Shown here piece by piece: positions 23,010-51,694 of a DNA stretch of 64,000 nt. Origin of the DNA: Giardia intestinalis (taxonomy: Eukaryota); the NCBI GenBank assembly GCA_000002435.2, contig CM018792.1; one strand, given 5' to 3'. A model generated the notes under the pieces. That model did not search any database. It was given only the letters and a program-made list of their open reading frames with translations, and was not told where the DNA came from. Each line of letters begins with the position of its first letter. The first letter of the stretch is position 1. A program made the position numbers and the translations under genes.

Positions 23010-23269
23010 TTTAAAAATAGATCTATTCTATCTCCTTACTTATCAATGCGTATTTGCACAGATAAAGTGTACGTATGTACGTGATTAATATCTGAATGTC
23101 CAGAGTAGATAATTACTTAACCTCGAATGTACGTTTTCACCTCATCATGAACGTGGTGCGTGGAAGAACGACACTAATACCCTTCATGACTCAGACTATT
23201 TACTAGAGGGTTCTATGCCGTTTCAGATGAGACAGCATCATTCGCTGAGCCAGGTGCTTGGATCTGTAC

Positions 23270-23484
23270 GTTTACTCTCTCCGTTTCACCGAGGTGGGGT
23301 TGCCATCTGCCACCTGAGCAATCCCCTCCATGCGAGCCACCGCCACTCTGGGTAGGCGGGTCCCTCCCGCCCTTGCACCAGCTGAGATCCAGAGTCCAGA
23401 GTCTAGAAACCAAAATCTGAGAATATGAGCTCAGATGTCAAGCGATTCCGGTGGGAGAAGAAGAAGTTTTCCACTTTCCCTCTC
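23270..23484. repeat. 3'-terminal inverted repeat of the left retroelement copy (inverted, diverged copy of the element 5' end)
   Basis: On the plus strand, 23270-23484 (gtttactctctccgtttcaccgaggtggggttgcc...ccatgcgagccaccgcc...gctgagatccagagtccagag...cagatgtcaagcg...) aligns in the same orientation with 29856-30051 (gtttactttccggttcaccggggtagggttgtc...tcatgcgagccaccgcc...cctgagatccacgtccagag...cagatgtcaacca...). By eye, roughly three quarters of positions match. Confidence 0.7.
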
Positions 23485-24790
23485 GGGAGTCTCTGTCGCT
23501 CTTCGCGGTGCCTTCCGAGGCTCTCCCATCTTCTGGCCTTTCGGGTCAGCTGTCGTCTGATATCTAGTGAGCACCCGTTGTCTCGGGCTTTTCCGTCAGC
23601 CACAGCAGTCTGGCCTCAGAAGCAGCTGACCCTGGCCATGTACTCCAGAGTCGCCTTGGTGCTGGTACTCTATCACGAAGATCGCATACGCCACGAACCT
23701 CAGGTGTCGATCCCTAGGTCCCTGAGGTGCTCCCTCGTCTTCTCGTGGAGGGTGCCGTCAGTCCCGAGTATGATCGGGAGGGTGCTCCCCGTATGCCTCT
23801 ATCTTAGAGTGGTAGTACGAGCTCATGGACGCCGGCTGGACCACTCCTATGTCGACGGCCTGGCTGGTGTCTGGAAAGAAGAGGTCCGGCTCTGGTTCTC
23901 CTTGTCATGGTCAACCCATACCTTCTGCTCGTGGATCACAGTGCACCTCTTCTTCGACATTATGTGATCAGTCATCCAACACGAGATCATGTCGACGCTC
24001 ACCCTATGCAGTGCGTCTGGCTCAGTGACGATGTGGTCTGCATCTCCTTGCATCGCACAGCACACTTGGAGGTGATGCTTTGGTCTGCCGAGACAGTCGG
24101 TCCAAGCCCGCATCTTTTCGAGAGGCGGCGGAAGGCGTCGTCCGGAAGCATCAGGAACGATCCGAAGACATGATTGATGTACGAGCCTGTGCTCACCGTT
24201 AGGTCGTCTCGCTCAGCAACCGGTTCGCGATGCTCCGTCGTCACGTCGAAGGTGTTAAATGCATCGCGCAGTTGCTTGTGATAGACGCCCGGCAGGTGGA
24301 CTCCCAGGCCGCCACTCTTCTTCGGTGCCGCCAGGAACGATCCACCTCTTCGGGTCAGAGCCGAGTATCCCTCCAAGGGCCTCTCCGACCTGCCTGTCGA
24401 AGGATTCATATTGTTCAACTGGTGAGTCCATCTCGACGAGCGGTGCGTAGCCGGCCATCGGAATGGCGTTGATCCTGGCCAGCGTCAGCTTGGCGTGGTG
24501 GGTGATCGGCGCGTCCATCACCAGCTTCAAGCTCTCTGCTGCCTTCTCTATCGCCCTGGGGGCTATGGACTGCTTCTCCTTCGAGACCGGGGCCCCCGGG
24601 AAGGAGACCTCCTGTCCTCTTTGGGTGCTCTTGCACTTGTCAATGTTGACTGTCAAACCATATCGTTTCGCCAGGGCTGTCGCCTCTGTGATTATCCCCG
24701 TCGCGTCGCTGTCGTTGGCATGGAAGCTGAGTGCGTCGTCAGTGTAGGCAATGAGTAGGGTATCTCTCCTTCGGCTCCTGGTGAGCAGGT

Positions 24791-25279
24791 TCTGTCCCCC
24801 GCAGCACAGAAGCATGCTCAGGGCCCTGAGGGACCGAGTCCAGGGGTGCAGCGTGGCGCAATTAGAGGAAGGCCTCGATGTAGTTCTCAGGATGAAGGGT
24901 ACACTCGCCTGGCCGAGGCCGTCTGCTGTTGGGGCTCTCGTTATGTCGAGCGAGGCCGCTGTGTTCCGTCAATCTGCATCTCCATGTATGCCATGCGGAC
25001 ACCACCCATGTGCGTTCAGGTGGAGTGCATCTGCTCGGTCTCTAGAAAGGCCAGTGTCTGGGTCTCCAGGGGGCTCAGCAGTATCTGTGAAACACAGCCA
25101 TGATCGTCCACTGATTGTGCTTGTCCTGTCTCATCATTGGGAAGAGGGTAGAACAAGAGTTCTTCCGCTCTCCAGACCTGGTTGACATCTGATCTTCGGG
25201 CTCTGGACGTGGATCTCAGGCGATGTATGGACAGGAGGTACCCGCTTGCCTAAGGCGGTGGCTCGCATGAGGGGATCAT
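24791..25279. repeat. Left arm of an apparently perfect 489 bp inverted repeat (partner 29912..30400)
   Basis: Position p on the left pairs with 55191-p on the right. Blocks 24841-24900, 25081-25160 and 25161-25279 were checked base by base against the reverse complement of the right arm and are identical. The track ORFs 24846..25103(+) and 30088..30345(-) have identical 85 aa translations. ORFs 24751..25185(+) and 30006..30434(-) are identical apart from their first residues. Confidence 0.9.
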
Positions 25280-25465
25280 TCCAGGAAGATGGAACCGTTA
25301 CATTATATCTACTGCTGTTCAGCTGTGATATTACATTAGAACTTGATTCTATTAATTTCGATAAAGTAACATTAGACACCGAGAAGGAAGCAATGTACAC
25401 AAAAACTGACACACATCCACAAACAGCACGAAAGCGTAGTGAAATGGTCGCTATTCACTCTAGGA

Positions 25466-26497
25466 TCATTTCGAGAGGATATCTACTATCTCTTTGTGAC
25501 CCTTCTTCTTAGCGATGTCAAGGGCAGTAGTACGGGGCGGGTAACCACAGTAGTCATAGACTGTCATCAGCTGCCTCTCCCCTAAGAGTAACTCAACACA
25601 CTCTATGTGGTCACCCCACACCGCATTCATAAGAGCTGTCCATCCTTTATCATTCTTCATGCCACTTTCTCTTCCTAACAGAAGCCTGACACACTCTGGA
25701 TGGCCATTACGTGCTGCCCACATGAGAGCAGTTTGACCGGTATTATTCTCCATGCCACTCTCTTTTTTGAGCAGCTCTACAACCCCTCTGTGCCCTTGCG
25801 CTGCCGCATACATAAGCGCTGTCCATCCACCAGCATCCTGGCCCCTCCTCATGTGAAGGTTGTTTCTGACTGCACCGATATCACCACGGTAAGCGGCGTA
25901 TATGAGTCCTGTCCACCCTGAGACACTGCTCTCATACCCCACCAGAAGCTCAACGCACCTAGGATAGTCTACCAGGGGGTCATTGGAACGGCCACTCCGT
26001 GCCGCGAATACGAGAGCGGTCCAACCGCCTACTTTCGCACCTCCTTCGTAACCCGCTAGCAGTTCTACTATTTCTGCGTATCCATGTGCCGCAGCCATCA
26101 TCAGCGCGGTTCCCCCCTTGTACATGGTCATCTCATCTATCTTGAAGCCTCCGGACGCCTTCTGTCCTTCCTGAAGGGGAGCAAGCGCCTTCACAGTACC
26201 TACATCATTTCTGTCAACAGCTCTCATGAGGGCAGTAAATCCGTTTTTGTCGGTGGGGTCGAGGAGCTCAACGATGTTCTTGTGTCCTGCCCTCGCAGCT
26301 ATGATCAGCGCTGTATCCCCCTCGCTGTTCTTCTTGTCTTTGTCTGAGAGATGCTTCTCGGCTGCCTCGAAGTCTCCGTCCGCAGCAGCGTGCATGAGAG
26401 GCGTCCAGGACAAATCCCTTGTGAACTGAGGTCCTGCATCGACATCCCCTTGACCAGAACTGCCTACTCGCGACCCTCCGCGTTCGTTGCGTGCCAT
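25466..26497 (-). CDS. Ankyrin-repeat protein (Giardia Protein 21.1 type), 343 aa
   Basis: It contains a run of ankyrin repeats with the Giardia-typical G(W/F/D)TALMxAAxxGHxxxVxLL pattern (TALIIAARAGHKNIVELL, FTALMRAV, TALMMAAAHGYAEIVELL, WTALVFAARSG, WTALMYAAAQGHRGVVELL, QTALMWAARNGHPECVRLL, WTALMNAV). The ATG is at 26497. Confidence 0.9.
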   Translation of the reverse strand: MARNERGGSRVGSSGQGDVDAGPQFTRDLSWTPLMHAAADGDFEAAEKHLSDKDKKNSEGDTALIIAARAGHKNIVELLDPTDKNGFTALMRAVDRNDVGTVKALAPLQEGQKASGGFKIDEMTMYKGGTALMMAAAHGYAEIVELLAGYEGGAKVGGWTALVFAARSGRSNDPLVDYPRCVELLVGYESSVSGWTGLIYAAYRGDIGAVRNNLHMRRGQDAGGWTALMYAAAQGHRGVVELLKKESGMENNTGQTALMWAARNGHPECVRLLLGRESGMKNDKGWTALMNAVWGDHIECVELLLGERQLMTVYDYCGYPPRTTALDIAKKKGHKEIVDILSK

Positions 26498-27469
26498 TCC
26501 TTATTTTTCTTGCCGAAGAAAGGGGCTAAAACACCTGTAATTCACACTGTAATCTACAGCTCAGTCAAATGATGTCCATACATGTATTCCTATATAACTT
26601 TGGCCCTTGCTGATTCTTTCTGTTGCATATAACTGTATGTAGTGTTATGCGTCCATGCCCGGCCTCTGCTCCTTCGTGCTGCGGCTAGCTGGGATCTTGT
26701 GAAGTACTAGGCTAGAGCCATTAACAGCGTGGAACACTGGTGGGCTTTCATCTCACCCGCAAAGTGCAGTGCGCTATGCTCTGTCTGTGAGCACTCATGC
26801 TTGACTACCCGAATGGGCTGCGTGATGTAGACTACTCTGAGACTGTAACCAAGGATTCGTGCTCAGTGCTAATTCATCTGCCGCTGTCGTTGGACCTCGT
26901 GGCAGCCATGATCTCAGATGCCTTGTGCTTACATCTGTAAGTCTTCTATGGTTGAAGAAAGTGTCTGTACGAACAGCGGGGGGCTCTCCCATGGGTTGCA
27001 GCTATGCCCATTGCAGGACCTTCAGGTCTCCTTGGACGTAGCCTGCCCAAGCTCAGTGGACTGCTGTGCAGAGAGTGTAGTCGCTCTTCGCCTGTTACGC
27101 TTTCTCCTGAAGAAGGCACGTTGCGGGAGCACTTCAAGCCCTACACTAGTGGAAAGCGCCATCGGCAGAACGCAGTCCACTGAATTCTCACGAAAGAAGC
27201 CGCTTCCACAGGATGCCCGTGGAGAGCGGCGCAGACGGCCCCCGCTCTATCTACACATGCAAGCTGGCCCCTTCGGCACACACGTTCTGCACCTTGTACG
27301 AGGCAGAGGGGTCCTGATGGGATAAAGTACCGACGCGTGTTACGGTGTGAGTGGGACGAATGACGAAGAACCAAAAAACGGTCTTACACATGCTAACAGC
27401 GTTGAACAGTGTACACTGTGGTCTCTATAGACCCACAAAGCCATCACAAAAAACGAGGAAACGACCCTG

Positions 27470-27904
27470 ATGAGCCAGGACGAGGGCAAAGCGGCAGAAG
27501 AATCCTTTGGCCGCTGGTTTTCTGCTGCACAGCGCGGAGATTGCGCCTATCTAAAACAGCATATAGCGACCATGCGGCGAGCCGTGGACTCCCGAGGAAT
27601 GACTGCGCTGATGCATGCAGCGGATGCAGGTCACGCATCGTATGTCCAAGCACTGGTTAGTGAAGCGTGCGAAATCAGCTCTGAGGGGTTCAAGGCTCTT
27701 AGGTACGCAATCCGCGCGTCCTCGATTGATGCTGCAGGAGTCTTGCTTCCGTATGAGGGCTCTGTTGAGACCTCTTCCGGTCTTTCTCCACTCCTTATGT
27801 TATTGAAGCGCAAGCAGGACACCATTGCACATATGTGCTTTGAGCATATGGATTCGTCTAAAGATCTGGCTCAAGGGAAGGATGGGGAGTTAGAAAGATA
27901 TTAA
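27470..27904 (+). CDS. Short ankyrin-repeat ORF, 144 aa; possibly the 5' part of the next ORF
   Basis: The ATG is at 27470. Ankyrin motifs are present (GMTALMHAADAGHASYVQALV). The stop TAA at 27902..27904 overlaps the ATG of the following ankyrin ORF (TAATG). Confidence 0.6.
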   Translation: MSQDEGKAAEESFGRWFSAAQRGDCAYLKQHIATMRRAVDSRGMTALMHAADAGHASYVQALVSEACEISSEGFKALRYAIRASSIDAAGVLLPYEGSVETSSGLSPLLMLLKRKQDTIAHMCFEHMDSSKDLAQGKDGELERY

Positions 27905-29148
27905 TGTTTGCTACTGAGCTGAACGACTACGGGCTCCTGCAGGATGCCATCCGTCGCTGTCATAAGCTGCCTGCGGGCGATATAGCTGAAGTACTTTCTC
28001 TCGAAACAGCTACCGGCCCAACCTTTTGCATAACGTACCTCATGGGTGTGCTTGACGGATTCGCACACCGGGATGACTCAAGGCGCCAACACGCTTCTCC
28101 CACACTGATCACAACGACTCCAGATGTTGTAAAGGGTGGCCCCAAAGTAGATGAGAACGGCAACACTCTCTTGATGAGGGCAGTCATGACCTTCAACTAT
28201 AAGAAGATGCCCGACTATTCTTCTATCCTGTGCAGAAGCGTGAACAGGGAGGGGAAGACTGCGCTCATGATCGCGGCAGAAATAGGCAATGAGTCCGCTG
28301 CGGCAATACTCAGGAAATACGAGGCGAAGATCCAAGATCCTGCTGGAATGACGGCCCTGATGTTCGCCGTGAACAAGGGAAATTTAAAGCTCGTCCAGAC
28401 GCTGTTAAAGTATGAGGTTGGTCTGAAGGACGTTGCAGGCCGGACGGCGCTGATGCATGCAGTACTATCAAACAAGCAGCCTATTATTCAGGAACTTATC
28501 AAGTGTGAGACTAGCAACCAAGACTTTCAGGGCAAAACAGCCCTTATCTATGCCGTAGAGCAGAACCTTTATCAAGCCTGCAAGGCGCCCATTCCTTATG
28601 AAGCGGGCTTGGTGGACCATAGGGGTCTGCGTGCAATAGATTATGCCAAGCTCTTCGACAATATGGAGCTGATAGATCTTTTAGAGGACTCAGAAGGAAT
28701 TTCACGAAACTCTCTTCAGCAGATCCTGCTTCGTCACGGGTGGCTAGCGCCACGCATATCCAGGCCCAGCCCCAGTCGTAGTAGCCCTAAGCCGGCTCTC
28801 TCTGGTTCCACTGTGAGCAAGCCCACTACTTCAACACAAGATAAGCAGCACACTACTGTAGATGTGAATAAAGAAGGCTCACTGCCTGAAGACGCGAAGG
28901 TATTTTCCACCGATCTTATCTCTGCTGTCCACGCCAGTAGGTACTATGACATCGGTGTTCTAGCCCCACATCTTGCCAACATGAGAGATCACCACAACCT
29001 CACGGCACTCCACTACGCTATCTACCAGAATAAACGAGTGGCAGTACGCATCTTGCTTCCTCACGAATACGAATCCCTTAATGGGTTTACTATTCCACCA
29101 GAGACGCGACCAGAGATAGTTGAGATGATAAACCTCTATAGGAAGTGA
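27904..29148 (+). CDS. Ankyrin-repeat protein (Protein 21.1 type), 414 aa
   Basis: Repeats are present (NTLLMRAV, KTALMIAAEIGNESAAAIL, MTALMFAVNKGNLKLVQTLL, RTALMHAVLSNKQPIIQELI, KTALIYAVEQN, LTALHYAIYQNKRVAVRILL). A Ser/Pro-rich linker (RPSPSRSSPKPALSGSTVSKPTTST) separates the repeat blocks. Confidence 0.85.
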   Translation: MFATELNDYGLLQDAIRRCHKLPAGDIAEVLSLETATGPTFCITYLMGVLDGFAHRDDSRRQHASPTLITTTPDVVKGGPKVDENGNTLLMRAVMTFNYKKMPDYSSILCRSVNREGKTALMIAAEIGNESAAAILRKYEAKIQDPAGMTALMFAVNKGNLKLVQTLLKYEVGLKDVAGRTALMHAVLSNKQPIIQELIKCETSNQDFQGKTALIYAVEQNLYQACKAPIPYEAGLVDHRGLRAIDYAKLFDNMELIDLLEDSEGISRNSLQQILLRHGWLAPRISRPSPSRSSPKPALSGSTVSKPTTSTQDKQHTTVDVNKEGSLPEDAKVFSTDLISAVHASRYYDIGVLAPHLANMRDHHNLTALHYAIYQNKRVAVRILLPHEYESLNGFTIPPETRPEIVEMINLYRK

Positions 29149-29208
29149 AGCTCTCATATAAGTACCCATTCAATCTGTATAGGCAGGCCTGTGAGGTATC
29201 TATGGAAC

Positions 29209-29855
29209 TCATTTCTTTTTACCGCCACGTGAGTTGTTCTTGAAGAAGATTATGTCCCCATCTTCAACAACGTAGTTCTTCCCTTCGGTGCGGACCTTCC
29301 CGGCTGCCTTGGCCTCTGCTTCGGACCCTAACCTCTTGAGATCCTTATAAGTGTAAACCTCTGCACATATAAAATAGTCGCGGAAGTCGCTGTGGATAAC
29401 CGCGCCTGCGTCCGGTGCCTTGGTGTATTTTCTGACCGTCCAGCATCTAACTTCGTCTGCACCACATGTGAAGAAATGACAGAGGTTCAATGCCTTATAT
29501 CCCGTCTTGATGATCTTATCGAGAGCCAACTCCACAACGGAACCGTCAGGGAGCTTGTATTTTGAGGGGAGCTCTCTGAGGTAAGCATTTCTAGCCTCTG
29601 CAGAGCCTAGCTCCAAAAGTGTCGCCTCTAGCTTGGCGCTGTACGGCACTATATGCGCAGTCTCGTTTTTGGCCGTTATCCGTTCCTGTATCTTAGTAAG
29701 GAACTTATTCTTCTTCTTACTATAATCTGCCTCACTCATGTTCAAAAGGTAGACCACAGGCTTGCAACTAAGCAACTGCAGCTCGTTGAGAATCTCCACC
29801 TCACGGGACGACCAGCCCTGGGCAAAGAGGTCCTTCTTTTCCTTGAGTAGTCCCT
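29209..29855 (-). pseudogene. 5'-truncated OLA1/YchF (Obg-like ATPase) fragment: C-terminal ~215 codons only, no G domain
   Basis: The translation ...SCKPVVYLLNMSEADYSKKKNKFLTKIQE...LNLCHFFTCGADEVRCWTVRKYTKAPDAGAVIHSDFRDYFICAEVYTYKDL...[32 protein letters not shown] follows human OLA1 as I remember it (...[29 protein letters not shown]...[41 protein letters not shown]...[25 protein letters not shown]...KKK). The N-terminal P-loop G domain (about 170 aa) is absent. Homology stops at the retroelement terminus at 29856. The first in-frame ATG is only at 29739. Confidence 0.75.
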
Positions 29856-30051
29856 CTATTTTTAGGTTTACTTTCCGGTTCACCGGGGTAGGGTTGTCAC
29901 CTGCTGCTTGGATGATCCCCTCATGCGAGCCACCGCCTTAGGCAAGCGGGTACCTCCTGTCCATACATCGCCTGAGATCCACGTCCAGAGCCCGAAGATC
30001 AGATGTCAACCAGGTCTGGAGAGCGGAAGAACTCTTGTTCTACCCTCTTCC
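29856..30051. repeat. 5'-terminal repeat of the right retroelement copy (inverted relative to the element 3' end)
   Basis: See 23270..23484. The outermost 7 nt, GTTTACT, are the exact reverse complement of the AGTAAAC at the 3' terminus of the left copy. Confidence 0.7.
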
Positions 30052-30400
30052 CAATGATGAGACAGGACAAGCACAATCAGTGGACGATCATGGCTGTGTT
30101 TCACAGATACTGCTGAGCCCCCTGGAGACCCAGACACTGGCCTTTCTAGAGACCGAGCAGATGCACTCCACCTGAACGCACATGGGTGGTGTCCGCATGG
30201 CATACATGGAGATGCAGATTGACGGAACACAGCGGCCTCGCTCGACATAACGAGAGCCCCAACAGCAGACGGCCTCGGCCAGGCGAGTGTACCCTTCATC
30301 CTGAGAACTACATCGAGGCCTTCCTCTAATTGCGCCACGCTGCACCCCTGGACTCGGTCCCTCAGGGCCCTGAGCATGCTTCTGTGCTGCGGGGGACAGA
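29912..30400. repeat. Right arm of the 489 bp inverted repeat (partner 24791..25279)
   Basis: See the left arm. There are mismatches immediately outside both ends: 24790 T against the complement of 30401 (C), and 25280 T against the complement of 29911 (C). Confidence 0.9.
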
Positions 30401-31127
30401 GCCTGCTCACCAGGAACTGAAGGAGATACTCCACTCAGTGTCTATATTGACGACAGTGACGCGATGGGGACAGTCACAGAGGCGACAGGCCTGGCGAAGC
30501 AACATGGCTTGACGGTCAGCACTGGGTGTAGGAGCACTGAGGGGCAGGAGGCCTCCTTCCTGGCCGGTCTCAAGGATCCCCCAAGACAACCGAAGGCCGA
30601 AGCCAGTGATGGCACCAATCACTCGCCAAGCTGGCCGGGATGGACCCACACGTGACCCATGTGAATCCCTCGACAGGCAAGTCGGGATCCTTGGGGTGCT
30701 TGGCTGGCAGAGGCGGACTGATCCTGCCTGCACCGAAGAGTGGTGGCGGCTCGCATGAGAAATCACTCAGATAACAGATGAGAGTAAATCAGGGGACTTT
30801 GTTGAAAAAGAAACGGCGACTCGAACTTCACCCACCACGAAGGAAGACCAAGGATAGGCGCCACCGGTAGACCAGAGAGTCTACAAGAAGGCCTGAATTC
30901 AAGGTAGATCGATGTGTACACCCAGACAGAGCATATCCTCATGGAGCAGCCGAGGAGCGCCCAGATTCTGAATGTGTCACTAAAGAGGACTCTCTCGTCA
31001 TGTTATTCGCAACCAACCCTCATCTTTGGATGACCAGGACTTAAATGAAAGCTTACCCGTGAGATCCTTGAATGCACTTGCGGGCAGGCCCCAGCAACAC
31101 ATCTACATGAGCTACATACGGTGACGC

Positions 31128-31146: not shown

Positions 31147-33000
31147 CTACGCCTTGCCCCTGCAGATGAACCACCAGCAGAGGAATCCGACGAGGCCTCC
31201 TACAACAACAATCACAGCGACGGAGATCCCCGCGATGGCCCCCGTGGAAAGGCCACTCCTGTTGGTGCTGTCTCCTCCAGTATCTCCGCCGGTGCCATCG
31301 TCAGCCTTTTGTTGCGTTACGTAACAGGTGACAGGGCCATTGCCACCAGCTGGCGGGGCACAGCTTATGCAGTTTTCTACACCAGTTATTGCATTAGAGC
31401 TAGCCTTATCACTATCCGTGCATTTGAAGCATTTATCACCGGCACCTTTGTAATACCCTGCTAAGCAATCTGTGCAGGTTTCCTTACTACCCGCACACTT
31501 CACACATCCTTCAGTACACGCCGGACATTTTCCTCCAGCTGGGCTTTGTCCATTGGCACACGTTTGGCATTGTCCCTTATTCTGTGCAGCCGTACACACA
31601 GAGCTACCAGGAAGCTTCTGTGTGTTGTAGCATCCGCCCGATAACAGAGCGTAGTTTGCCCCACACTCAGTGCATTTCCCGCCACTTGCCTTACATCCGG
31701 AGGCATCTCTCGCTGTTGCAGGTATGGATGTGCAGACGCCGTCGACTGGGGCGTACCCCTCCTCGCACTGATCGCAGTACTTCGAGCCTCCGACGTTCAG
31801 TGAGCAGCCGTCGGCCTTGCAGTGGGCCATAAAGTCTCCCGTGCACTCCTTTATACAGGTACCCTTAGCATTCGTCTCATCACGCTTCAACACGTATCCC
31901 GGATAGCAGGCCGTGCACGACGTTTCTGCGTTAGTACTACAGCTTGCGCACGATTCGTGGCACAGATTACAAACGTTAGCGTCAGTGCGAGTTCCCGCGG
32001 GACAGGCATCTAAGCACGCGTCTCCCAAGGGGCTCAGCTTCTTTTCTGATCCGCAAGCTTCGCAGACGTTGTCCTTACTGCACTTTTCGCAATGCTCCAT
32101 GGGACACACAAAGCAGCCTGTTCCGGCTTCATTGGGTTTTTTAGTACCCTCGCAGGTAAGACACTTAACGGAATCTCCAGTCTTTGAGCACGTCTTGCAG
32201 TCGGCCACACCGCCCTCACTGACACTACCGCAGAGATGGCACTTTTTGTCCTCTGCTATTGGGAAGTGTGTGTTACCACATCCGTTTTCGTCAACACACG
32301 TGCCTGTCCCGTCGCTATTGGCCCCTTCTTTGAAGTATTGCTTACCAGTATCCTTGCAGGAGGTGCATTTATCCTCACCGTTGCCGGTGCACGTTCTACA
32401 ATCTGCATGGCACTGCTGACAGCTTGTAGTGCCATAGTATCCGTCCACACAGCTTTTACATGTGGCCGTCTGTTCTGCACTGCTTTGTCCGGGAGTTTTC
32501 GGGGCGTCGCACGTCGCACAGTTCTGAACCCCCTTATTATGATCCACACCGGCCGTGTTGTTGCATGCAATACAGGACTCCTTCGTTTTATCAGCGTCAG
32601 ATGCAGGATTCTTGAAGTACCCGTCGTGGCAAGCTATGCATATTCCATCCTTATCAGCCGTGGCAGTTCTATCGTTGCACACAAGGAGCCCGATATCGCT
32701 TCCCATCTCGTAGCACCCTCCCCTGTGCAGGAAGAAGCCGGCTTTACAAGATGTACATGTGCCATCATTCTTTGTTGTACATGCTCCTTCAGCATCCTCG
32801 CCTGTAGTTATGCACTTTCCATTGACAAGATGCTCTGCTGCTGTCGAGCACTGGGAGCAGAAGTTTGAGCCCCCAATCCAGACGTCGCACTTTCCTGTTG
32901 CGCACTGTCCTGTTTGCGGGTCACTGCTAGCCTCTGTGCATGTCGTTGCTGCCCATACCACTTGCAGGATGGCGATTCCGAAGATGATTTTCTCGAACAT
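31147..33000 (-). CDS. Variant-specific surface protein (VSP), 617 aa, complete
   Basis: The C-terminus is ...[33 protein letters not shown], the invariant VSP TM domain plus CRGKA tail. The ectodomain is Cys-rich with many CXXC motifs and GGCY motifs (HRGGCYEMG, LLSGGCYNTQ). The signal peptide is MFEKIIFGIAILQVVWA. The track start at 33021 is a GTG. The first ATG is at 33000. Confidence 0.95.
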   Translation of the reverse strand: MFEKIIFGIAILQVVWAATTCTEASSDPQTGQCATGKCDVWIGGSNFCSQCSTAAEHLVNGKCITTGEDAEGACTTKNDGTCTSCKAGFFLHRGGCYEMGSDIGLLVCNDRTATADKDGICIACHDGYFKNPASDADKTKESCIACNNTAGVDHNKGVQNCATCDAPKTPGQSSAEQTATCKSCVDGYYGTTSCQQCHADCRTCTGNGEDKCTSCKDTGKQYFKEGANSDGTGTCVDENGCGNTHFPIAEDKKCHLCGSVSEGGVADCKTCSKTGDSVKCLTCEGTKKPNEAGTGCFVCPMEHCEKCSKDNVCEACGSEKKLSPLGDACLDACPAGTRTDANVCNLCHESCASCSTNAETSCTACYPGYVLKRDETNAKGTCIKECTGDFMAHCKADGCSLNVGGSKYCDQCEEGYAPVDGVCTSIPATARDASGCKASGGKCTECGANYALLSGGCYNTQKLPGSSVCTAAQNKGQCQTCANGQSPAGGKCPACTEGCVKCAGSKETCTDCLAGYYKGAGDKCFKCTDSDKASSNAITGVENCISCAPPAGGNGPVTCYVTQQKADDGTGGDTGGDSTNRSGLSTGAIAGISVAVIVVVGGLVGFLCWWFICRGKA

Positions 33001-33943
33001 TGCCGGCAGCCCATAGAGCACGCAACACCAGGCGACGCTGCCACGTGGTAAGTGAGGATAATGTGCACCCTACGAGGATGCCCCGGTGTAGCGGATCTCT
33101 GGTGTCCTAGTGGCTTCTCCTATGTGTGGCGTCTCTAGGGACCAAGGAGAGAATGTGCATTATGGCATCTCAAGAGCGGCCCCTCGCACATCACCGGTAC
33201 CTATGACAGTAATCATCACTACGTGGATAGGTCCACTCAAGTAATGAATGCACCCACTGCTATGAAACTGGACCGATGCTCCTCACAAGAGCTGCCTGGA
33301 TAAAGGAGAGAGCCACCGACAAGCCTCAGCTGTGCTCTGTCCAGGACCACCACACAGGGGCGAGAAGTCGGCTGGCCGTCACTTTTTAGCAATGACACCA
33401 ACCACTGCCTCTGCTTGGTCCTCCTGGGATGCCTAGAGCGCTCACACATGGATTCTTGTGTGTCCTCCACGGCTATCTGGGCATAGTCGCCACGGTCTCT
33501 CGTAGTTCTGTTCCCTACTGTTACAGGCCACATGCTAGCCGCCTACACAGTACTAGAGCAGCTGTAGACAAGACCGAGGCGGATCGATGAACCAGTGTGT
33601 CTGGCTTCCCCTCTGGCTGTATCTTCTATTCAGTTCAACACTCTCAGATAGCATCCTTTACATAACAGATTTTGTTAAGTACATGGATCCATTCTTAACC
33701 TTCCACTGTTACTACGGACGACCGAGCTGTTTGGCTGGCGTATGCCTCTGTAGACGGTGTTATTCTAAACTATACAATTTACAGGGGTAGGCAGAGAGTA
33801 TGAGGACTGAAGAGAAGGGAACTCAGATAGAGTCCTAGCTCAGCGGGATAGTGTCATCGTGGTCACGTTATCAATGAGTGGCAGGCTTGCACATATAGAA
33901 ACCCTTTGGTACATATTGTGCTACGCTTTATGAAAAACGCTAA

Positions 33944-36322
33944 ATGCTCGGCCTTTTACCACTGGCTCTCCTTGCTTCTATTTGCAAAAGTTCAAGAGAT
34001 GCGTATTACAACAAGTTCGGCGTGGGATGTGAGGGCAAGCAGGAGAATTGCGCCCAGGATAGGTGCTTTTCCATAGGGTCATGGACGTCATGCACCCAAT
34101 GTATCCCTGGGTATGTTCCAATAGATGGAAAATGCCAGAATTACTCCGGAGCTAGCTCCCCTCCATGTACTCCAGATGATCCCAACTCACCGACTCGCTG
34201 CATCAGATGCACATCAACAGAAAATGTCTTTCTCTTTTATGGCAGCTGCTATACAATTACAACAGCACAGAACAGAAATCTGGGCAATTTCTTGTGCTCT
34301 GAAGCATCGAATGGTGTGTGCACTAAATGCTTTGAAAGTAAGCTTGAAAGATATGTCTTTACCAATCCAGACACAAGTGCAGCTGAGAAGTGCATCCTGT
34401 GCTCCGATACGGTCGGGTTCAATGGGTACAAAGGCGCCTCTGGGTGCCTAGACTGCCTTCCTCCCATCACTGATAAAATAGGCATCGCTCTGTGTGTTAA
34501 GTGTCACTATACTACCGAGGATAGACATTTTTATCCGATTGACTATCAATGCCAAGCCAAAGGGCCTCACAATTGCGTCAATGGTTACTGCACGTCATGC
34601 TACAAGACACATTTGTTCTATGAGTATGGATGTTATAGTCGGCACAGTTCGACTGGATTTGCCATATGCGCGGGGGCGAATCAGTACGAGCTAGATAATG
34701 TTACTATCTGCAAAGAGTGCGCAAATGCATCATACGCACCCAGGAACGGAGCATGCATTCTTATCAAGGAAAATCCATCTATTGAAGAGATCGCTTTTAA
34801 GTGCACAAAGGATCCAACTAAAGGACTATGCACGGCCTGCTCTAGCTCCGCGCCATCTTTCCTCTTCTACGGCGGCTGCTATGACGAGGACGCCCGTATT
34901 AGCTCAAAACTCTGTTCAAGAATTGGATCAAATGCCTGTGAACAATGGAATAGTGCTTTCAAATGGATCTTCTCTAAGAATGGCGATAACAATAAAAATG
35001 GATATCTGTGTGGCGATATTGCAAACGGTGGCATCTCTGGCTGTGCTACGTGTAACTATGCCAGCGGTGCTGTCACTTGCACGCGGTGCTCGGCAGGGTG
35101 CCTAGGAGTGGACGGGAAGTCCTGCAGTGAAGGCTGCAGCGGAGACACTCGGGGAGTGTGCACGAAGGTAACAGAGGGGAGCGAGTCAACTGAAGTGTCG
35201 TGTCGATGCGTCTGCAGGCCGACGTTCTACAACAGCTCCGGAACGTGTACACCATGTACGGACTCGTGCGCTGTCTGCAAGGATGGCACACTAACCGGCT
35301 GTCAGCAGTGCAGCCCCGGCAAGATCCTGAGCTTCTCGATCGTCTCTAGCGAGAGTGCAGACTGTGTCGATCAGTGTTCTGTTGGTAGTGAGTGTGCAGA
35401 GTGCGGCATCACCATCGACGGCAGCAGGTACTGCACGCGCTGCAAGGACGCAAGCACGTATCCGTTCAATGGCGTGTGTATTCCAAACACACAAAGAGAC
35501 GCGTACTGTACCAGCACGGCAAATGGTGCTTGCACTGCCTGCTCAGAAGCGGCCTTCCTGATGAACGGGGGCTGCTACACAACGGAGCACTATCCAGGAA
35601 GCACTATCTGTGATAAGCAGTCAAACGGAAAGTGTGAGAAGACCAAGGAGGGGTACGGGATATCGGCCGATGGAAAGCTGCTGGAGTGCGATCCGACATG
35701 TCTGGCGTGCACTGCCCCTGGCCCCGGCCGCTGCACCAGGTGCCCCTTTGGAAAGCTCCTGAAGAAGGTCTCGGGTGCCGCCACCGGGAGCTGCGTCGGC
35801 CTTAATGCCTGTGTAGACGGGTACTATGCAGACGGAGACGCGTGCCTGCCCTGCGCCACTCCGGGGTGCAAGACCTGCGGACATGCCTCTTTCTGCACAG
35901 AGTGCGCGGGGGAGCTCTTCGTGAGCCTGGACGGGCGGTCGTGCCTGGAGGAGTGCACCGGGGACAAGGTGGTGGGAGAGGTGTCCAGCGGCGTGCAGAG
36001 GTGCTGGTGTGAGCGGGGCTTCCTACCGGCACTGGACAGATCCGGGTGTGTGCTCCCAACCGAGTGTCCCCCTGACATGTCGTGGTGTGCTGCCTGCGAT
36101 ACGTCGGGTAAGTGTCTCTCGTGTGCCGCCTCGAATCATAACATCCAGACAGATCAGCGGACGTGTGCAGAGGGGTGCGGCGCCAGGGCCTCATCGAACC
36201 AGGGGCTGTGCATGTGCGAGCTTGACGCGGTCCTCAGAAGGGCATCTGTGTTTCGACCAAGGAGCTGGCCAAGAAGAGAACGGCGGCGATCGCAGGAGGG
36301 ACGGTGGCCGGGGTCATTGTGA
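33944..36322 (+). CDS. High-cysteine membrane protein (HCMP, VSP-like ectodomain), 792 aa as read; the reading frame breaks before the TM anchor
   Basis: A signal peptide [14 protein letters not shown] is present. CXXC/CXC-rich repeats with GGCY/GSCY motifs run throughout ([31 protein letters not shown]). The last ~30 residues ([28 protein letters not shown]) look like out-of-frame read-through. Confidence 0.85.
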
Positions 36323-37526: not shown

Positions 37527-39686
37527 ATGAAACAGAGTAAACAATTTTATCACAAGGTTTGGGCAGAAAAGATTTGTACACACATTCCTCTTACTATGAA
37601 TCTCGCTGAAAAACTGAAATTAGACTATGAAATAAGGCTTCGGGAGGCACCTAGCAATAAGCTGTGGAGCCAGTATGCTCGTTGGGAGGCTTCTCAAGGC
37701 CGAGTAAGAGCTGCATGCGTCATTTGTGAAAGATACTTAGACTCTACCGCCGATCCATCTGAGGATATGTGGCTTCTCTATGCAGAACTGTCTCCTTCAC
37801 GCTCCATGAAGCTGGACATTTTTACCCGTGCTATCCAGCAACAGCCCCTTTCCACAAGATTACATCGCTCCATGCTACAGTGCTTCCTATCGCACGATGG
37901 AGCACCACTTTTGTCTATAGCAGACATAGAGCATTTAGTTAAGAACTGGATGAACAGGGTACTCGAGCATGGTTCTCCTAGCCATTTAGAGGCCCTGTTT
38001 AAGACTCTAGTTGATAGTCTAGAGCAACTAATTTGCTATAGCTCTATTCAGCAATGTGAGGAGCTTGCGCTTTTGCTTCTGCATGCTTATGCTTCTATTC
38101 CTGGAGCCAGAGACCCTCTGTGCTTTGTCTTTAATGCTCTTCAGCAGCTTATCGAACAATCTGGGTTTAATCGAAGAAAGCTGTTTATTAGTGCGCTCAA
38201 GATCTTCACGCTAATCTTTCCAACTCTGTCTTCCTTCAGCGAACAATATTTAGCTTTACATCGTCTTTATTTGCTGTACGAATTCATGCAGCCGCGCCTT
38301 CATTCTCTTTTCTTTGCTGAAACGCTGGTCTCTAGCCCTGTTAATAATACGAGTGAGTCACCCTTTAAATCAATCTATGCACTTCTATTTGCTGCTCGGA
38401 CTAACCTGGAGACAGCTCCTTCGCTGGGTGTTACCGAACTCTGCCTATTATTGGCATATGACTCTCTTCTAACACTACAAGTAGATGATAGAATTTTTCA
38501 ATCTGGTTGTTGTTCAATCTTTAATATTGTGAGCCCGGTGCAACTGTTTGGTGAATCCTGGTTTGACAGACTCAGTGTTATCCAGCTCATTATTGAATCT
38601 GAGCTGTTTGTGCTTAGAAAAACTACAATCACAGAAGTGCTGAAAAATTTAGTACTATCGATGGGCAGCCATTCTTATCAGTCTAATAGCTTATCTGATG
38701 AGCAACTTGTTCAGCTTTACTCTTCAATCCAGCATCTCCTTCAGCGCTTCCCCTCTGAACCTGAAGCATTTAAAAGTGTAGAGTACTTGTTGAGCGTTTG
38801 CCTACCCACCATTCTGTCCAGGTTCGACCAACTTTTCGGATTAGTAGAAGGCCTTCTGCAGATGCTACTTACATCTCCCAGGTGTGCACGGTTTACTGAC
38901 AGGATACTCTCAATTATAGAAGAAGTGGATCCTATGCTTTTTGATCCGTGTACAATCAGGTTGGTGTTGAGGGCAATGGCGTCAAGAACGTTGATCACCG
39001 AAAATCTATCTGGCACAACGCTAGCTCGTATAGTATCCTGCAGTATTATTAATGGTGAGATAACGATGGCTATAGATGTCCTGCTATTAGCTCGGAACAA
39101 ACAGCCATGCTTTGAATTGTTCCAAAATATTATTAGAATCATATTTGATAATACAGAAGCTAAAGGCATGTTCAGCACAACAATTAGGTGCCTAAGTGAA
39201 ATAACATCCATTTTATTAAGTGACGTAGAGTTTCGTAATGATATTATAAACTTCTCGTCAAATACAACCTTAGATTTGAATTACATATCTGTCAAAGATT
39301 TCCTAGATTGCTCAGCTATTGTATTGTTGCTTTTTCTTGCATGCATGACGCAGCAATTAGCAGAAAACCACATATTCGATGGTGCAATCTTTGAAGATAT
39401 CATTGGGAGCGTGCTTAAGCAGGTTGAGATTGTGCACATAGGCGTTAAGATGGGCGATATTATCCTAGTGGATCAGTACGCGAAGCTCAGCAGCTTGATT
39501 GGTACAGTGTTTGAGTACTATGAGCTGATTACCGGTGCAGAAGCAATATCGGGGAGAGTCGCGCTCGAGTGTGTAGTGAGTGTAAAGGACAAGGACCAGA
39601 GTAGATCTCTTCTTTTATATGAGGTTGTCCCGATTGACCGCTCCGATGGAGATGGGCTCCTCAAGCTGTTGGACAGAGTGGAGTAA
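37527..39686 (+). CDS. Hypothetical protein, 719 aa, helical; N-terminal HAT (half-a-TPR)-like repeats
   Basis: The track ORF starts at a TTG (37524). The ATG is at 37527. The N-terminus KLWSQYARWEASQGRVRAACVICERYLDS...DMWLLYAELSP...DIFTRAIQQQP follows the HAT pattern W..Y..fE...G....A..i.ER.L seen in RNA-processing factors. The rest is Leu-rich and helical. The function is not assigned. Confidence 0.7.
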   Translation: MKQSKQFYHKVWAEKICTHIPLTMNLAEKLKLDYEIRLREAPSNKLWSQYARWEASQGRVRAACVICERYLDSTADPSEDMWLLYAELSPSRSMKLDIFTRAIQQQPLSTRLHRSMLQCFLSHDGAPLLSIADIEHLVKNWMNRVLEHGSPSHLEALFKTLVDSLEQLICYSSIQQCEELALLLLHAYASIPGARDPLCFVFNALQQLIEQSGFNRRKLFISALKIFTLIFPTLSSFSEQYLALHRLYLLYEFMQPRLHSLFFAETLVSSPVNNTSESPFKSIYALLFAARTNLETAPSLGVTELCLLLAYDSLLTLQVDDRIFQSGCCSIFNIVSPVQLFGESWFDRLSVIQLIIESELFVLRKTTITEVLKNLVLSMGSHSYQSNSLSDEQLVQLYSSIQHLLQRFPSEPEAFKSVEYLLSVCLPTILSRFDQLFGLVEGLLQMLLTSPRCARFTDRILSIIEEVDPMLFDPCTIRLVLRAMASRTLITENLSGTTLARIVSCSIINGEITMAIDVLLLARNKQPCFELFQNIIRIIFDNTEAKGMFSTTIRCLSEITSILLSDVEFRNDIINFSSNTTLDLNYISVKDFLDCSAIVLLLFLACMTQQLAENHIFDGAIFEDIIGSVLKQVEIVHIGVKMGDIILVDQYAKLSSLIGTVFEYYELITGAEAISGRVALECVVSVKDKDQSRSLLLYEVVPIDRSDGDGLLKLLDRVE

Positions 39687-39697
39687 GGCACAATGCA

Positions 39698-41602
39698 CTA
39701 TGGTAGGGCAACGGTGAGGTCGTAGGAGCTTCCACTAATAGTAGTGGGTGAAAGAAACGTGGCTCTGTAAATAATCAGTCCGCACACATTGCTTGGCTCT
39801 TCACTAGTGACAGTTACAGGGGCTTCGGGACGCACATCGTCGGGGCTTGCCTTTCCAGTAGGTACCTCAGAGGCGAAGGTTTCATCAGTTTCATGCTCAG
39901 TCTCTCTGAAGGAAGTGATGGCGGGCATAAGAAATAAGTCATCGTCGTCGTCATTAGGAGGATGCTGACATTCATCTTCGGTTGATGTTGGAGGAATCTT
40001 GTGTAAAACATCTGTGCAGGTAGGCATATCCTCATCAAGTGAAGGAGCATCTGGAGTATCACATAGTCCAGACGAATGGACACACTGACGGTAGGTGTGC
40101 ACAACCTCAGAAGGTGCATCGTCATATAACTCGGGCATGGAGACACGATCGATATTGGAGAGTGGTCGTGGGAGACTACAAAGCTCACCTTGGATCTTCT
40201 TTAGAATTGCGTGTATTCCACCATCGGTGCTGGCTTTGCTCTTTCTCGGAAGTGCCCCGGGCGCCGGAGGTTTGGCGTTCCTTGGCATAGAAGACCCGTC
40301 TGTCGGGGCGTGATATTTGGTAAAGAGCGAGCCACTGCCACTACGCTGTGATGGAGCGGAGCGAGTTGAATAAACCTCGTATTGATCGGTCTCTTCCCTG
40401 TGCTGGACAGGGACTACCACAATCTCCTTTCCCTGATGGAGATACTCGTCGGCTACCTTTCTAAACTCTGTAATACGCTGTCCTTCTTTGATTAATAGCT
40501 GCCTTATCTCGTCACTTGACACAGGCATGTCAGGCGCCCCAAATGCTGTCTCCAGAAATTGTGAGAGCATTTCAGGAAGAGAACTGAAGTCCATAGGCTT
40601 CAGAGTCGGTATTGGTAATCCCAAGAGTAAAAATAGGGAAACATCTGCAGAGGTAAATATCCCCGTTTGGTCCGATCTTTGCTCTTTCGGGGCAGAATCA
40701 TCAACATTTGAGGTTATCCAAACACCGTACTCCACTGACCTTTTATAAAAGGCGGCCACGGCATCGCTTACAGTGTCAATACCCACAAATTCACCTTTGT
40801 CAGGGTCATCGAAAAATCCAATGAGGAGCATCAGTTTAATAACAACCTCCTCTGTGAAGATGTTTTCTGTTAAAAGACGTGCATACCATGATTCTGTGCA
40901 GTTTTGACTAATTGCTTCAGCTGAAAACAGAGGAAGATTCAGGGGCAGCTTGCATTGAGCTCTTGTTCTCTCTAAGGCAAAAGTTACTCTTGATGTCAAC
41001 GATCTAATGCTGAGAACGAGTTCTGCAATACGTTTTCTTGAGCTAGTACTCGCTTTTGTGTGGTTCTCATTTAGCATCATCAAGAAGCTGCGAATAGCTG
41101 CTTGCCTTTGGTGGGTAAGATCTACATATTCTTTTTTAAGACCAAGAATAACTCGCAAGCGGCACCCATAGATCTTTTGCGCGGCAGTGTCTCCTTTTAG
41201 TACATTCCATGCATACCGCCGCTCGCCCTCAGACAGATATAAGGCCTCCCATATTCGAGAAATCGTTGCCTTCTCGTCTCCACTGCGTATTTTTAGCCGT
41301 CCAGATGCTCCTGGTGAAGTGGTAGGGGTTCCAGCACTTGAGGGCAAAGAGTCCCTCAAGCTTAGGCTTGGCTTCCGTATATCTACGGACTTGCTCTCTG
41401 AAATACTGTGTCCTAGTGAGCGCTGCGTCAGGGGTGATTGGCGCTGATAGATACTCCTTTCCACAAGGAGATTTTTTCTGCGATAGGGCGTGGCATCCGA
41501 GTGCCTTCTAGATGTTGCAGCAGAAGCTGTCGAGGCGGAGACCCCTAGACTGGCGTCCGAGGATGCAGTCAGCAGACGCCCTGAAAAGGCCGAGGGCTCC
41601 AT
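39698..41602 (-). CDS. Hypothetical protein, 634 aa (Ser/Thr-rich N-terminus, acidic DDDDD patch near the C-terminus)
   Basis: This is a long ORF with its ATG at 41602 (ttaagactATGgag). No family was recognised. Confidence 0.7.
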   Translation of the reverse strand: MEPSAFSGRLLTASSDASLGVSASTASAATSRRHSDATPYRRKNLLVERSIYQRQSPLTQRSLGHSISESKSVDIRKPSLSLRDSLPSSAGTPTTSPGASGRLKIRSGDEKATISRIWEALYLSEGERRYAWNVLKGDTAAQKIYGCRLRVILGLKKEYVDLTHQRQAAIRSFLMMLNENHTKASTSSRKRIAELVLSIRSLTSRVTFALERTRAQCKLPLNLPLFSAEAISQNCTESWYARLLTENIFTEEVVIKLMLLIGFFDDPDKGEFVGIDTVSDAVAAFYKRSVEYGVWITSNVDDSAPKEQRSDQTGIFTSADVSLFLLLGLPIPTLKPMDFSSLPEMLSQFLETAFGAPDMPVSSDEIRQLLIKEGQRITEFRKVADEYLHQGKEIVVVPVQHREETDQYEVYSTRSAPSQRSGSGSLFTKYHAPTDGSSMPRNAKPPAPGALPRKSKASTDGGIHAILKKIQGELCSLPRPLSNIDRVSMPELYDDAPSEVVHTYRQCVHSSGLCDTPDAPSLDEDMPTCTDVLHKIPPTSTEDECQHPPNDDDDDLFLMPAITSFRETEHETDETFASEVPTGKASPDDVRPEAPVTVTSEEPSNVCGLIIYRATFLSPTTISGSSYDLTVALP

Positions 41603-41618
41603 AGTCTTAAATTTTTAC
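41603..41618. promoter_or_regulatory. 16 bp AT-rich spacer (agtcttaaatttttac) between two divergent ATGs
   Basis: This is the only sequence between ATG 41602 (-) and ATG 41619 (+). Any initiator elements for both genes must lie here or inside the neighbouring coding sequence. Confidence 0.4.
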
Positions 41619-42029
41619 ATGAAAGGTGGGACCATTGCGCAGCGCCGGGATGCCATGATGAGAGCGCATATTCTATCAAAGGTAAGGCAGCGGACAGATG
41701 CAGAAATCAACAGCACATTTTATACACCAGAAGAAATTGCTTCCCACGCAAGCATGGACGACGCGTGGATGTCCTACAGAGGGAAGGTATATGACATTAC
41801 ACACTACGTTCGTTATCACCCAGGAGGGCTACAATGTATGCAGGAATACATGGGAAAGGACATGACCCACGCGGCAGACTCCGTCCACAAATGGGTAAAT
41901 GTGGCAACAATGCTACGTCCCTTGGCGATCGGAACAGTAAAAACACACGTTGACAATTCTAATGCCTTTTCTTGCCTACCAACAATTGCTGAAGTAGCAG
42001 AAGAAGAAAATAATAAGGATGCTTCTTAG
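41619..42029 (+). CDS. Cytochrome b5-like haem-binding protein, 136 aa
   Basis: ...EEIASHASMDDAWMSYRGKVYDITHYVRYHPGGLQCMQEYMGKDMTHAADSVH... carries the b5 core (D.W....G.VYD.T.....HPGG) and a second His downstream. The track ORF begins at 41490 with a non-ATG codon inside the upstream gene. The first ATG, at 41619 (MKGGTIAQRR...), gives a b5-sized protein. Confidence 0.85.
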   Translation: MKGGTIAQRRDAMMRAHILSKVRQRTDAEINSTFYTPEEIASHASMDDAWMSYRGKVYDITHYVRYHPGGLQCMQEYMGKDMTHAADSVHKWVNVATMLRPLAIGTVKTHVDNSNAFSCLPTIAEVAEEENNKDAS

Positions 42030-42133
42030 ACCAATTCACTAGATCAGCAGTGACATCCTCCCCTCCATAGATTGATTGATATCTTTTGAATCTGTGAATT
42101 GCTGCGTATTCAAATTTTGGCAACCAAAAGATA

Positions 42134-42568
42134 ATGCCGCCGTTTAAGCGCCAGCCCGTGAAGCTTGAGGACCTACTTGCTCCACGGGGTCTTCAAACAG
42201 CGATCAAAGAGATCTGCCAGTGCGTGGACGAGGCGCGAGCAGATAGAGAGTCTGGGGTGACGTTAGCTCGACGCATAGCAGGTCAGTTTGTCAGGTGGAA
42301 TAGGGAAGTCTTTGGACCCATTCCGCCGATCCGCACACTCCGACGAATTAATGCAATGGTGAAAGCCCAAGTCATTGCAAATTACTCTTCGTCTGCATTC
42401 GAGAGGATGGTGGGAGTTACTGGCTCTGAAGAAGATTTTGACAACCTAATCCACCAGACATCGAGGCAGAGGCCGCACACATCTGCTATTAAAGTTCTTC
42501 AAAAAGATGACTCATTGGACTCACAGAGGGACACCTTGAGAATCAGCGATAGCGATGACATCCACTAA
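42134..42568 (+). CDS. Hypothetical protein, 144 aa
   Basis: The ATG at 42134 is preceded by aaaagataATG. The ORF is clean and no family was recognised. Confidence 0.6.
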   Translation: MPPFKRQPVKLEDLLAPRGLQTAIKEICQCVDEARADRESGVTLARRIAGQFVRWNREVFGPIPPIRTLRRINAMVKAQVIANYSSSAFERMVGVTGSEEDFDNLIHQTSRQRPHTSAIKVLQKDDSLDSQRDTLRISDSDDIH

Positions 42569-42804
42569 AGACGTTTGTCAGTAGAGCCATTTGCGCATTT
42601 ATCTGCTAATGCTGGATGCTTCAGTAAATTTACTGTAACTCCCCCGTTCTGCGCCGTGGGGCACGCCTCTCCCGCTTTCGCCGCTGCAACTCCGCATACT
42701 CCTCCTCGGAGAGAATGATCACAAACTCCTGGCCTCTCTGCTGAGATGGCTGCGTAGGGGGCATTCAAATCTCAACCTTTTATAGTTTACATACACCTCA
42801 ACCC

Positions 42805-47832: not shown

Positions 47833-47988
47833 TTTTGTTTTTAAAAAAAGGCGGTATTTGGATTAAAAAACCGAAAAACGGACCAAATTCTGGGCTCAAA
47901 AATTTGAAAAGTTCCCAAAATTTGCGGACGAGCCCAAAGCCAGCACATAAAGTGTACAGGAAAGTAAGTTTACCTTTGCTTGCTGCCG
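47833..47988 (-). promoter_or_regulatory. 156 bp AT-rich spacer upstream of the coiled-coil gene with three CAAAT(T)-type motifs
   Basis: On the plus strand the motifs are CCAAATTC (47883-47890), TCAAAAATTTG (47896-47906) and CCAAAATTTG (47915-47924). A T/A run lies directly before the ATG. Confidence 0.3.
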
Positions 47989-49005: not shown

Positions 49006-49068
49006 TTACTTTTTTGGAGAGGATCAATTTGATTCAATTCCACTGAATCAATTAATCACTGAATTACT

Positions 49069-51633: not shown

Positions 51634-51694
51634 AGATGCAGCCGACCCCGAGTTTTTCGGAACTGATAGAAGTGCCAGTGGCGAGAGTTTACAG

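Follow-up and report, generated by a model that had tools for sequence, protein, structure and literature searches.

A C-terminal OLA1 fragment joined to a dead retroelement in Giardia intestinalis is very probably a partial duplicate with little or no function

Fragments of host genes at retrotransposon junctions are known from mammals, where L1-associated deletions and transductions occur and microhomology is found at the 5′ junction. In Giardia, GilD/Genie 2 is reportedly a dead family of non-LTR retrotransposons, and terminal inverted repeats are said to be a feature of Genie 2. Dead, degenerate and internally deleted reverse-transcriptase copies of GilD have been described beside VSP genes (PMC2861651). 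In the WB genome 6.9% of the sequence is duplicated with an enrichment in multigene families, and reverse-transcriptase remnants are located near VSP genes (PMC7000408).

We analysed a 64-kb stretch of WB DNA (the window) which contains a cassette of ~8.7 kb with the order element, OLA1 C-terminal half, ankyrin gene, ankyrin gene and inverted element (Table 1). The locus resembles the L1-type junction fragments in that a host gene is cut at the end of an element and in the short microhomology, the co-duplication and the relaxed constraint. Unlike in these, the Giardia fragment is bounded by two inverted copies of an element with terminal inverted repeats, and target-site duplications were not seen around the cassette. 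With GilD/Genie 2 the two element arms have in common the degenerate reverse-transcriptase remnants, the lack of an intact open reading frame, the internal deletions and the VSP neighbours, and they also carry terminal inverted repeats, the feature ascribed to Genie 2. The arms are probably GilD/Genie 2-like, an assignment made by description. Judging from sequence comparisons, the OLA1 piece is very probably a partial duplicate of the OLA1 gene of Giardia itself, with no function or almost none.

The OLA1-derived fragment and its junction with the element tip

The open reading frame 29209–29883 on the minus strand has 224 codons with GTG as the first possible start and corresponds to the C-terminal half of OLA1/YchF only (residues ~190–395). 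Similarity to OLA1 up to the C-terminus, as claimed in the first-pass annotation, is borne out by the Pfam profile YchF-GTPase_C (PF06071; E 1.2e-35, profile positions 1–84 of 84), by phmmer against solved OLA1 structures, which aligns fragment residues 8–224 to residues 191–395 of 5ee0 (E 1.6e-58), and by a tblastn search with human OLA1, whose sole match in the window is at 29850–29212 and covers residues 193–395. In terms of the intact 406-aa Giardia protein the fragment extends from L189 to K406 and retains the C-terminal TGS-like domain in full and the helical insert in part. The G domain (P-loop GxxGxPNVGKS; Pfam MMR_HSR1, PF01926) is found neither in the fragment nor anywhere else in the window. 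The latter had been noticed before and holds for searches with human OLA1 as well as with the N-terminal 187 residues of Giardia's own OLA1, which were compared with the window as protein and as DNA and gave a best chance match with E 1.2.

In contrast to the intact gene, which has a G domain, a promoter and a start codon, the fragment is devoid of codons 1–187, promoter and start codon, and the DNA upstream of it is the terminal repeat of the element. No in-frame ATG precedes Met49 in the WB fragment. The ATG of Met49, which had been correctly positioned at 29739, is its only conventional start, with a predicted product of 176 aa. By exact look-up the fragment was not found among the WB reference proteins on record.

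It had been proposed that the OLA1 similarity is cut off exactly at the element terminus, at 29855/29856. The coincidence with the terminus is correct, whereas the position has to be shifted by ~10 nt: OLA1 sequence ends at 29865/29866 and the element tip GTTTAC occupies 29866–29871. The element tip itself is confirmed, and GTTTAC is present again at the other element ends. On the coding strand the fragment junction reads ...CCGGTGAACCGGAAAGTAAAC followed by CTAAAAATAGAGGGACTACTC, and the intact gene reads ...CCAATATAC followed by CTAAAAATAGAGGGACTACTC at the same place. After the complete element tip ...GTAAAC the fragment continues with CTAAAAATAGAG, and at the position of the tip the parent reads ...ATATAC. 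The sequence ...GGTGAAACGGAGAGAGTAAAC is the terminus of a repeated element that recurs at 23267 and at further loci, which places the junction at 29865/29866 with a microhomology of 2 nt (AC). Of the peptide VNRKVNLKI, which had been attributed to the element as a whole, VNRKVN is indeed element sequence but LKI is already OLA1, since the parent reads ...PIYLKIEGLL. We also considered whether the OLA1 homology extends upstream into 'GIIQAAGDNPTPV' and rejected this, because the terminal repeat that encodes this peptide also stands at unrelated element ends.

Between assemblage A (WB) and assemblage E (contigs L001, L004 and L006), the terminal repeat together with the first ~41 OLA1 codons (29740–29990) has diverged by 3–4%. 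Almost no synonymous changes are found in these ~41 codons, and the synonymous sites downstream are ~25% diverged. The strong conservation of ~190 nt at the junction possibly reflects a constraint at the DNA or RNA level or a recent conversion.

Table 1. Coordinates of the cassette features in the window
Feature	Position	Strand	Basis or remark
Left arm, ~2-kb inverted copy of the same dead element	23267–25284	−	
Intact 343-aa ankyrin-repeat gene KAE8303500.1	25466–26497	−	Inside the cassette
Segment copied from the parent OLA1 locus	26495–29865	.	Alignment to the parent locus
Ankyrin-repeat (ARP-1) pseudogene copy	27470–29148	+	Frameshift, giving ORFs of 144 and 414 aa
OLA1/YchF-derived fragment	29209–29865	−	Last 218 codons and stop; homology and comparison with the intact parent
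Stop codon of the OLA1 fragment	29209–29211	−	
First in-frame ATG	29737–29739	−	Met49 of the 224-codon ORF
Right arm, partial dead non-LTR retroelement copy	29866–30576	+	5′ end toward the OLA1 fragment
Junction microhomology	29866–29867	−	AC common to element tip (...GTAAAC) and parent (...ATATAC)
Out-of-frame ATG with 14-codon ORF	29880–29924	−	Within the element terminal repeat

Retroelement arms, parent locus and cassette copies

The description of the cassette as flanked by an inverted repeat could be substantiated: the arms 24765–25284 and 29907–30426 are 520 nt long and 99% complementary. As element copies they are 99% identical over 520 nt and ~90% identical over 700 nt. The ends of the element are formed by a terminal inverted repeat of ~130 nt starting GTTTACTCTC. 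In the right arm this repeat is complete (29866–29990, starting GTTTAC), and remnants of the reverse transcriptase lie at 30104–30562 with weak similarity continuing to ~30750. The left arm has its outer tip GTTTACTCTC at 23267, an outer repeat at 23267–23401, an inner repeat at 25201–25276 without its last ~45 nt, the C-terminal half of the reverse transcriptase at 25087–24185 and a remnant of the downstream open reading frame at 24154–23586. A 186-aa open reading frame of this arm is recognized by the RVT_1 profile (E 1.5e-5). Comparison of the arm with a reverse-transcriptase open reading frame from P15 by tblastn yields a match of 1e-53 that is broken over several frames, and a second match of the arms to the P15 element reading frames has 1e-26. 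Thus, the arms are homologous to reverse transcriptase, contain no intact open reading frame and have internal deletions.

A reverse-transcriptase-bearing relative of 4.2 kb with terminal inverted repeats of ~85 nt is found in P15. Its identity to the arms is only ~67% at the DNA level and ~62% at the protein level in the reverse-transcriptase region. The P15 element is located at the same site of the cassette in L001 (12713–16895) and L004 (12134–16316), and the two inserts are 98% identical. It has reverse-transcriptase open reading frames of 422 and 618 aa and is missing from L006 and from WB. Compared with the dead arms, to which it is related, this element may be younger and possibly autonomous.

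The intact OLA1 of Giardia has 406 aa with the P-loop GIVGLPNVGKS and both the MMR_HSR1 and the YchF-GTPase_C domain. In WB it is recorded as 'GTP dependent nucleic acid binding protein' (KAE8305284.1, XP_001708009.1, UniProt A8BBM0), and orthologues exist in DH (ESU36180.1), P15 (EFO62172.1), GS (EET02224.1) and G. muris (81% identity), so that every sequenced lineage of Giardia has the intact gene. The cluster of intact Giardia OLA1 proteins comprises 25 members including WB, P15, GS and DH, which are 90–95% identical to the fragment. The genome search thus yielded an intact WB paralogue on a different contig. This contig is 4.02 Mb long and the window genes are on a contig of 2.76 Mb; the intact gene therefore resides on another chromosome than the window. 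We located it via synteny, as the 562-aa ankyrin paralogue of DH adjoins the 406-aa OLA1 gene.

The fragment is homologous to the last 218 codons of the intact gene, and the 3′ spacer and the ankyrin neighbour are the same at both loci. Window positions 26353–29870 are colinear with the DH parent locus (95.7% identity), and positions 26495–29865 with the P15 parent locus (90.3% identity). The copied segment of 3.4 kb takes in the 3′ half of OLA1 and the ankyrin gene, with a spacer of 60 nt between them, as well as ~1 kb of intergenic DNA. The match to the parent locus stops inside OLA1 at codon ~187/188, and the translation of the intact DH gene runs ...DVQPIYLKIEGLLKEKK... across this breakpoint. 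Between the WB fragment and the WB-type parent there are 29 differences in 651 nucleotides and 9 in 217 amino acids. Together, the intact paralogue and the colinear parent locus support the earlier proposal of a rearrangement or partial duplication instead of a simple insertion into an intact gene.

The two parts of the ankyrin pseudogene are 92% and 96% identical to KAE8305285.1 (562 aa) of the parent locus, and in the P15 cassettes the copied ankyrin gene is truncated to 222–243 aa. The other ankyrin gene of the cassette, KAE8303500.1, was not copied from the P15 parent-locus ankyrin gene at the same position, with which it shares only ~35% amino acid identity.

At the parent OLA1 locus of DH and P15 a relic of the same element lies between the ankyrin genes and the NTF2 gene (L008 6144–7280, L011 15316–15670), and its GTTTAC tip points toward the ankyrin/OLA1 side. 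This relic may be relevant to the first formation of the cassette. On the Logan contig SRR3568099_646 (L010) the ankyrin part at 4093–5228 is 99.9% identical to the window cassette, against only 96% for the true WB parent ankyrin protein. Reads of parent and cassette have probably been merged into a chimera on this contig, and only its OLA1 part was used in the comparisons, leaving the ankyrin part out.

Further copies of the cassette are present in P15 (three copies, on L001, L004 and L006) and on two DH contigs, one of them L009, and other assemblage-A assemblies contain it as well. Without exception the copies show the identical junction of OLA1 and element tip and the same truncation of ~45 nt at the inner end of the other arm. 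Homology between the copies ends at the outer element tips, and the flanks outside differ. Since the junction is identical in WB, DH and P15, it arose before assemblages A and E diverged. The shared junction, the end of homology at the outer tips and the differing flanks show that the cassette was duplicated as a unit. Some of the copies are annotated, namely EFO63811.1, EFO63828.1 and EFO64760.1 in P15 ('GTP-binding protein') and ESU34809.1 and ESU34734.1 in DH ('GTP-binding protein, partial'). These have the same junction and cassette as the window and are ~89–97% identical to the window open reading frame at the amino acid level, but differ from WB in copy number and flanks, and in L001 and L004 by the additional 4.2-kb element inside the cassette. 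In L001 and L006 a 2-nt deletion brings an ATG of the terminal repeat in frame, which results in the annotated 'GTP-binding protein' of 236/237 aa.

The cassette thus contains a copied 3.4-kb piece of the parent locus whose OLA1 end is joined via the 2-nt microhomology to the element terminus, and it is closed by a second element copy in inverted orientation. The junction would have been made when a retroelement insertion was joined at its 5′ end, or else by microhomology-mediated end joining. From one outer element tip to the other, the cassette then appears to have spread as one block.

The non-coding DNA of the cassette (26498–27469 and other parts) differs by ~7% between WB and P15. For the single-copy genes at 37983–57560 the difference at synonymous sites is ~40–46% (dS 0.56–0.72). 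This would mean either that third codon positions here change much faster than non-coding DNA or that the coalescence of the cassette lineages is more recent than that of the genomes.

It is improbable in our view that the whole ~8.7-kb unit is a composite mobile unit. In such a case, the antisense outer tip, which resembles the 5′ end of the element because of the terminal inverted repeats, could give rise to a read-through RNA from one tip to the 3′ end of the other arm. A reverse transcriptase acting in trans could copy this RNA and carry pieces of host genes around the genome. In a related and equally improbable scenario, the RNAi pathway of Giardia might be fed by transcripts that run through the 99%-identical arms or antisense to the OLA1 half, and the intact OLA1 might be modulated in this way.

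Relaxed constraint and gene conversion

The fragments of WB and P15 have a dN/dS of 0.15–0.23 with 6, 11 and 31 differences at the first, second and third codon position, respectively (p = 2e-5). The single-copy genes of the window have dN/dS values of 0.02–0.19. This strong third-position bias could be understood if the fragment were a functional, neofunctionalised paralogue of OLA1 which consists only of the C-terminal part, has 176–236 aa with the helical and TGS-like domains and is under selection. Such a paralogue would also fit with the open frame, as the 217 codons are free of stops and frameshifts in all ~8 fragment copies, which show one in-frame codon deletion and one lost stop, and with the in-frame ATG that L001 and L006 of P15 have gained.

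However, the dN/dS of 0.16 between WB and P15 was rejected as evidence of function after a site-pattern analysis with the parent genes. Changes found only in the fragments are 34 nonsynonymous and 16 synonymous (omega 0.59, one-sided p = 0.06 against neutrality), whereas those found only in the parents are 1 nonsynonymous and 21 synonymous (omega 0.013), and the two sets of counts are significantly different (Fisher's exact test, p = 3e-7). Constraint at the protein level thus has fallen ~40-fold, and the purifying selection typical of the OLA1/YchF family is not seen in the fragment. On the WB branch alone omega is ~0.3, a value from only 7 nonsynonymous and 7 synonymous changes, and among the P15 fragment paralogues it amounts to 0.65–0.8. 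The fragment-specific changes are mostly nonsynonymous and affect invariant positions, for example W61R and S112L in assemblage A and FFT to FST, G to R and H to P in the P15 copies. In WB seven replacements (S16G, P19S, W61R, R65K, N68T, S112L and V184A) fall at sites that do not vary among the intact genes of assemblages A, B and E. Radical changes are also seen in the conserved FFTxGxDEVR motif of the P15 copies.

The low dN/dS is explained by synonymous differences of the parents that were imported into the fragments. At 14 sites, 13 of them synonymous and most of them in codons 144–205, assemblages A and E have fixed differences which parent and fragments have in common within each lineage and which therefore point to gene conversion from the parent. 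Other copies of assemblage A have reverted to parental residues in a patchy manner, and this also has to be ascribed to conversion. Where one of the parent lineages has changed, at codons 54–74 (A) and at codons 1–24 and 126–130 (P15), the fragments retain the ancestral state, and the duplication is therefore old. From these site patterns the purifying-selection signal between the fragments is attributable to gene conversion by the parent. Intermittent conversion from the intact gene would patch the fragment, keep its frame open and mimic purifying selection.

Three further points speak against a functional paralogue: the start codon differs between WB and P15, the co-duplicated ankyrin neighbour is plainly a pseudogene, and an exact look-up did not find the fragment among the WB reference proteins. 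The fragment-branch omega, which is somewhat below 1, is more in its favour. On balance we regard a functional paralogue as unlikely. For the preferred reading, a partial duplicate with little or no function, the open frame, the omega of 0.59 instead of 1 and the ~190 conserved nucleotides at the junction may leave some room for a residual function.

Following this reading, the WB open reading frame should be annotated as an OLA1 pseudogene fragment, and the 'GTP-binding protein' entries of P15 and DH are the same relic. The fragment should be neither regarded as an additional GTPase nor used to argue that OLA1 is missing or split in Giardia. The locus would be a clean and dated example of dead retroelement copies that bound and spread segmental duplications in VSP-rich variable regions. 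It would also exemplify how conversion from a selected parent lends a pseudogene apparent purifying selection (dN/dS 0.16).

Split-gene and insertion readings, and neighbouring genes

Trans-spliced split genes are known in Giardia for Hsp90 and for dynein heavy chains. One could therefore think of OLA1 as a split gene as well, whose halves are joined by trans-splicing. The clean position of the break would be in line with this, as would the initial observation that, among the matches listed, the only Giardia proteins were C-terminal halves (EFO63811.1, EFO64760.1). However, an uninterrupted 406-aa open reading frame for OLA1 exists in WB, DH, P15, GS and G. muris, and the fragment is accordingly not the sole OLA1 locus. 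Upstream of the fragment no branch-point/3′ splice motif (CTRACACACAG) is found, the nearest matches being elsewhere and at chance frequency, and the break is preceded by the terminal repeat, which stands at element ends unrelated to OLA1 as well. Trans-splicing as well as a cis-intron were rejected on the grounds of the missing splice motif and the intact gene, and a split OLA1 is hardly conceivable. A loss or splitting of OLA1 in Giardia was likewise rejected, as the intact protein is present though it was not among the matches listed initially. A full-length query, unlike the fragment or an N-terminal-half query from diplomonads, lists the cluster of intact Giardia OLA1 proteins.

On three metagenome/SRA contigs (L002, L003 and L005) we found full-length OLA1 genes with in-frame TAA/TAG at conserved positions. 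The fragment is 58–63% identical to the C-terminal-half proteins predicted on these contigs. They are probably from diplomonads of the Hexamitinae that read TAA/TAG as glutamine, and gene callers split their OLA1 into halves, which mimics the Giardia fragment.

An insertion of the element into the sole intact OLA1 with the N-terminal half beyond it, or an assembly artefact at the junction, would agree with the exact coincidence of the break with the element terminus but has next to no likelihood, as the N-terminal half is found neither beyond either arm in the window nor within 8–10 kb upstream in the three P15 copies nor on the 7.1-kb DH contig L009, so that the missing 5′ half is not adjacent in five independent cassette copies, and as independent assemblies (WB, DH, three P15 contigs and ENA assemblies) all show the identical junction. 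An inversion between the arms, by which the N-terminal half would have been moved outside the left arm, was rejected as well, since nothing OLA1-like is located there.

The cassette is part of a variable region, in which duplications of this kind are common, with a VSP gene (31147–33021, minus strand, CRGKA tail), a gene for a high-cysteine protein (33944–36322, plus strand) and several ankyrin-repeat genes near the cassette. Eight open reading frames of the window match proteins of WB (ATCC 50803) exactly (KAE83035xx / XP_0017083xx). A scan of the window with Rfam gave no matches. The first 22 kb of the window could be taken for gene-poor, which we rejected because one giant open reading frame leaves the window edge. 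This uninterrupted frame (1–21965, minus strand) starts with an ATG at 21965, comprises at least 7,321 codons and continues beyond the left window edge.
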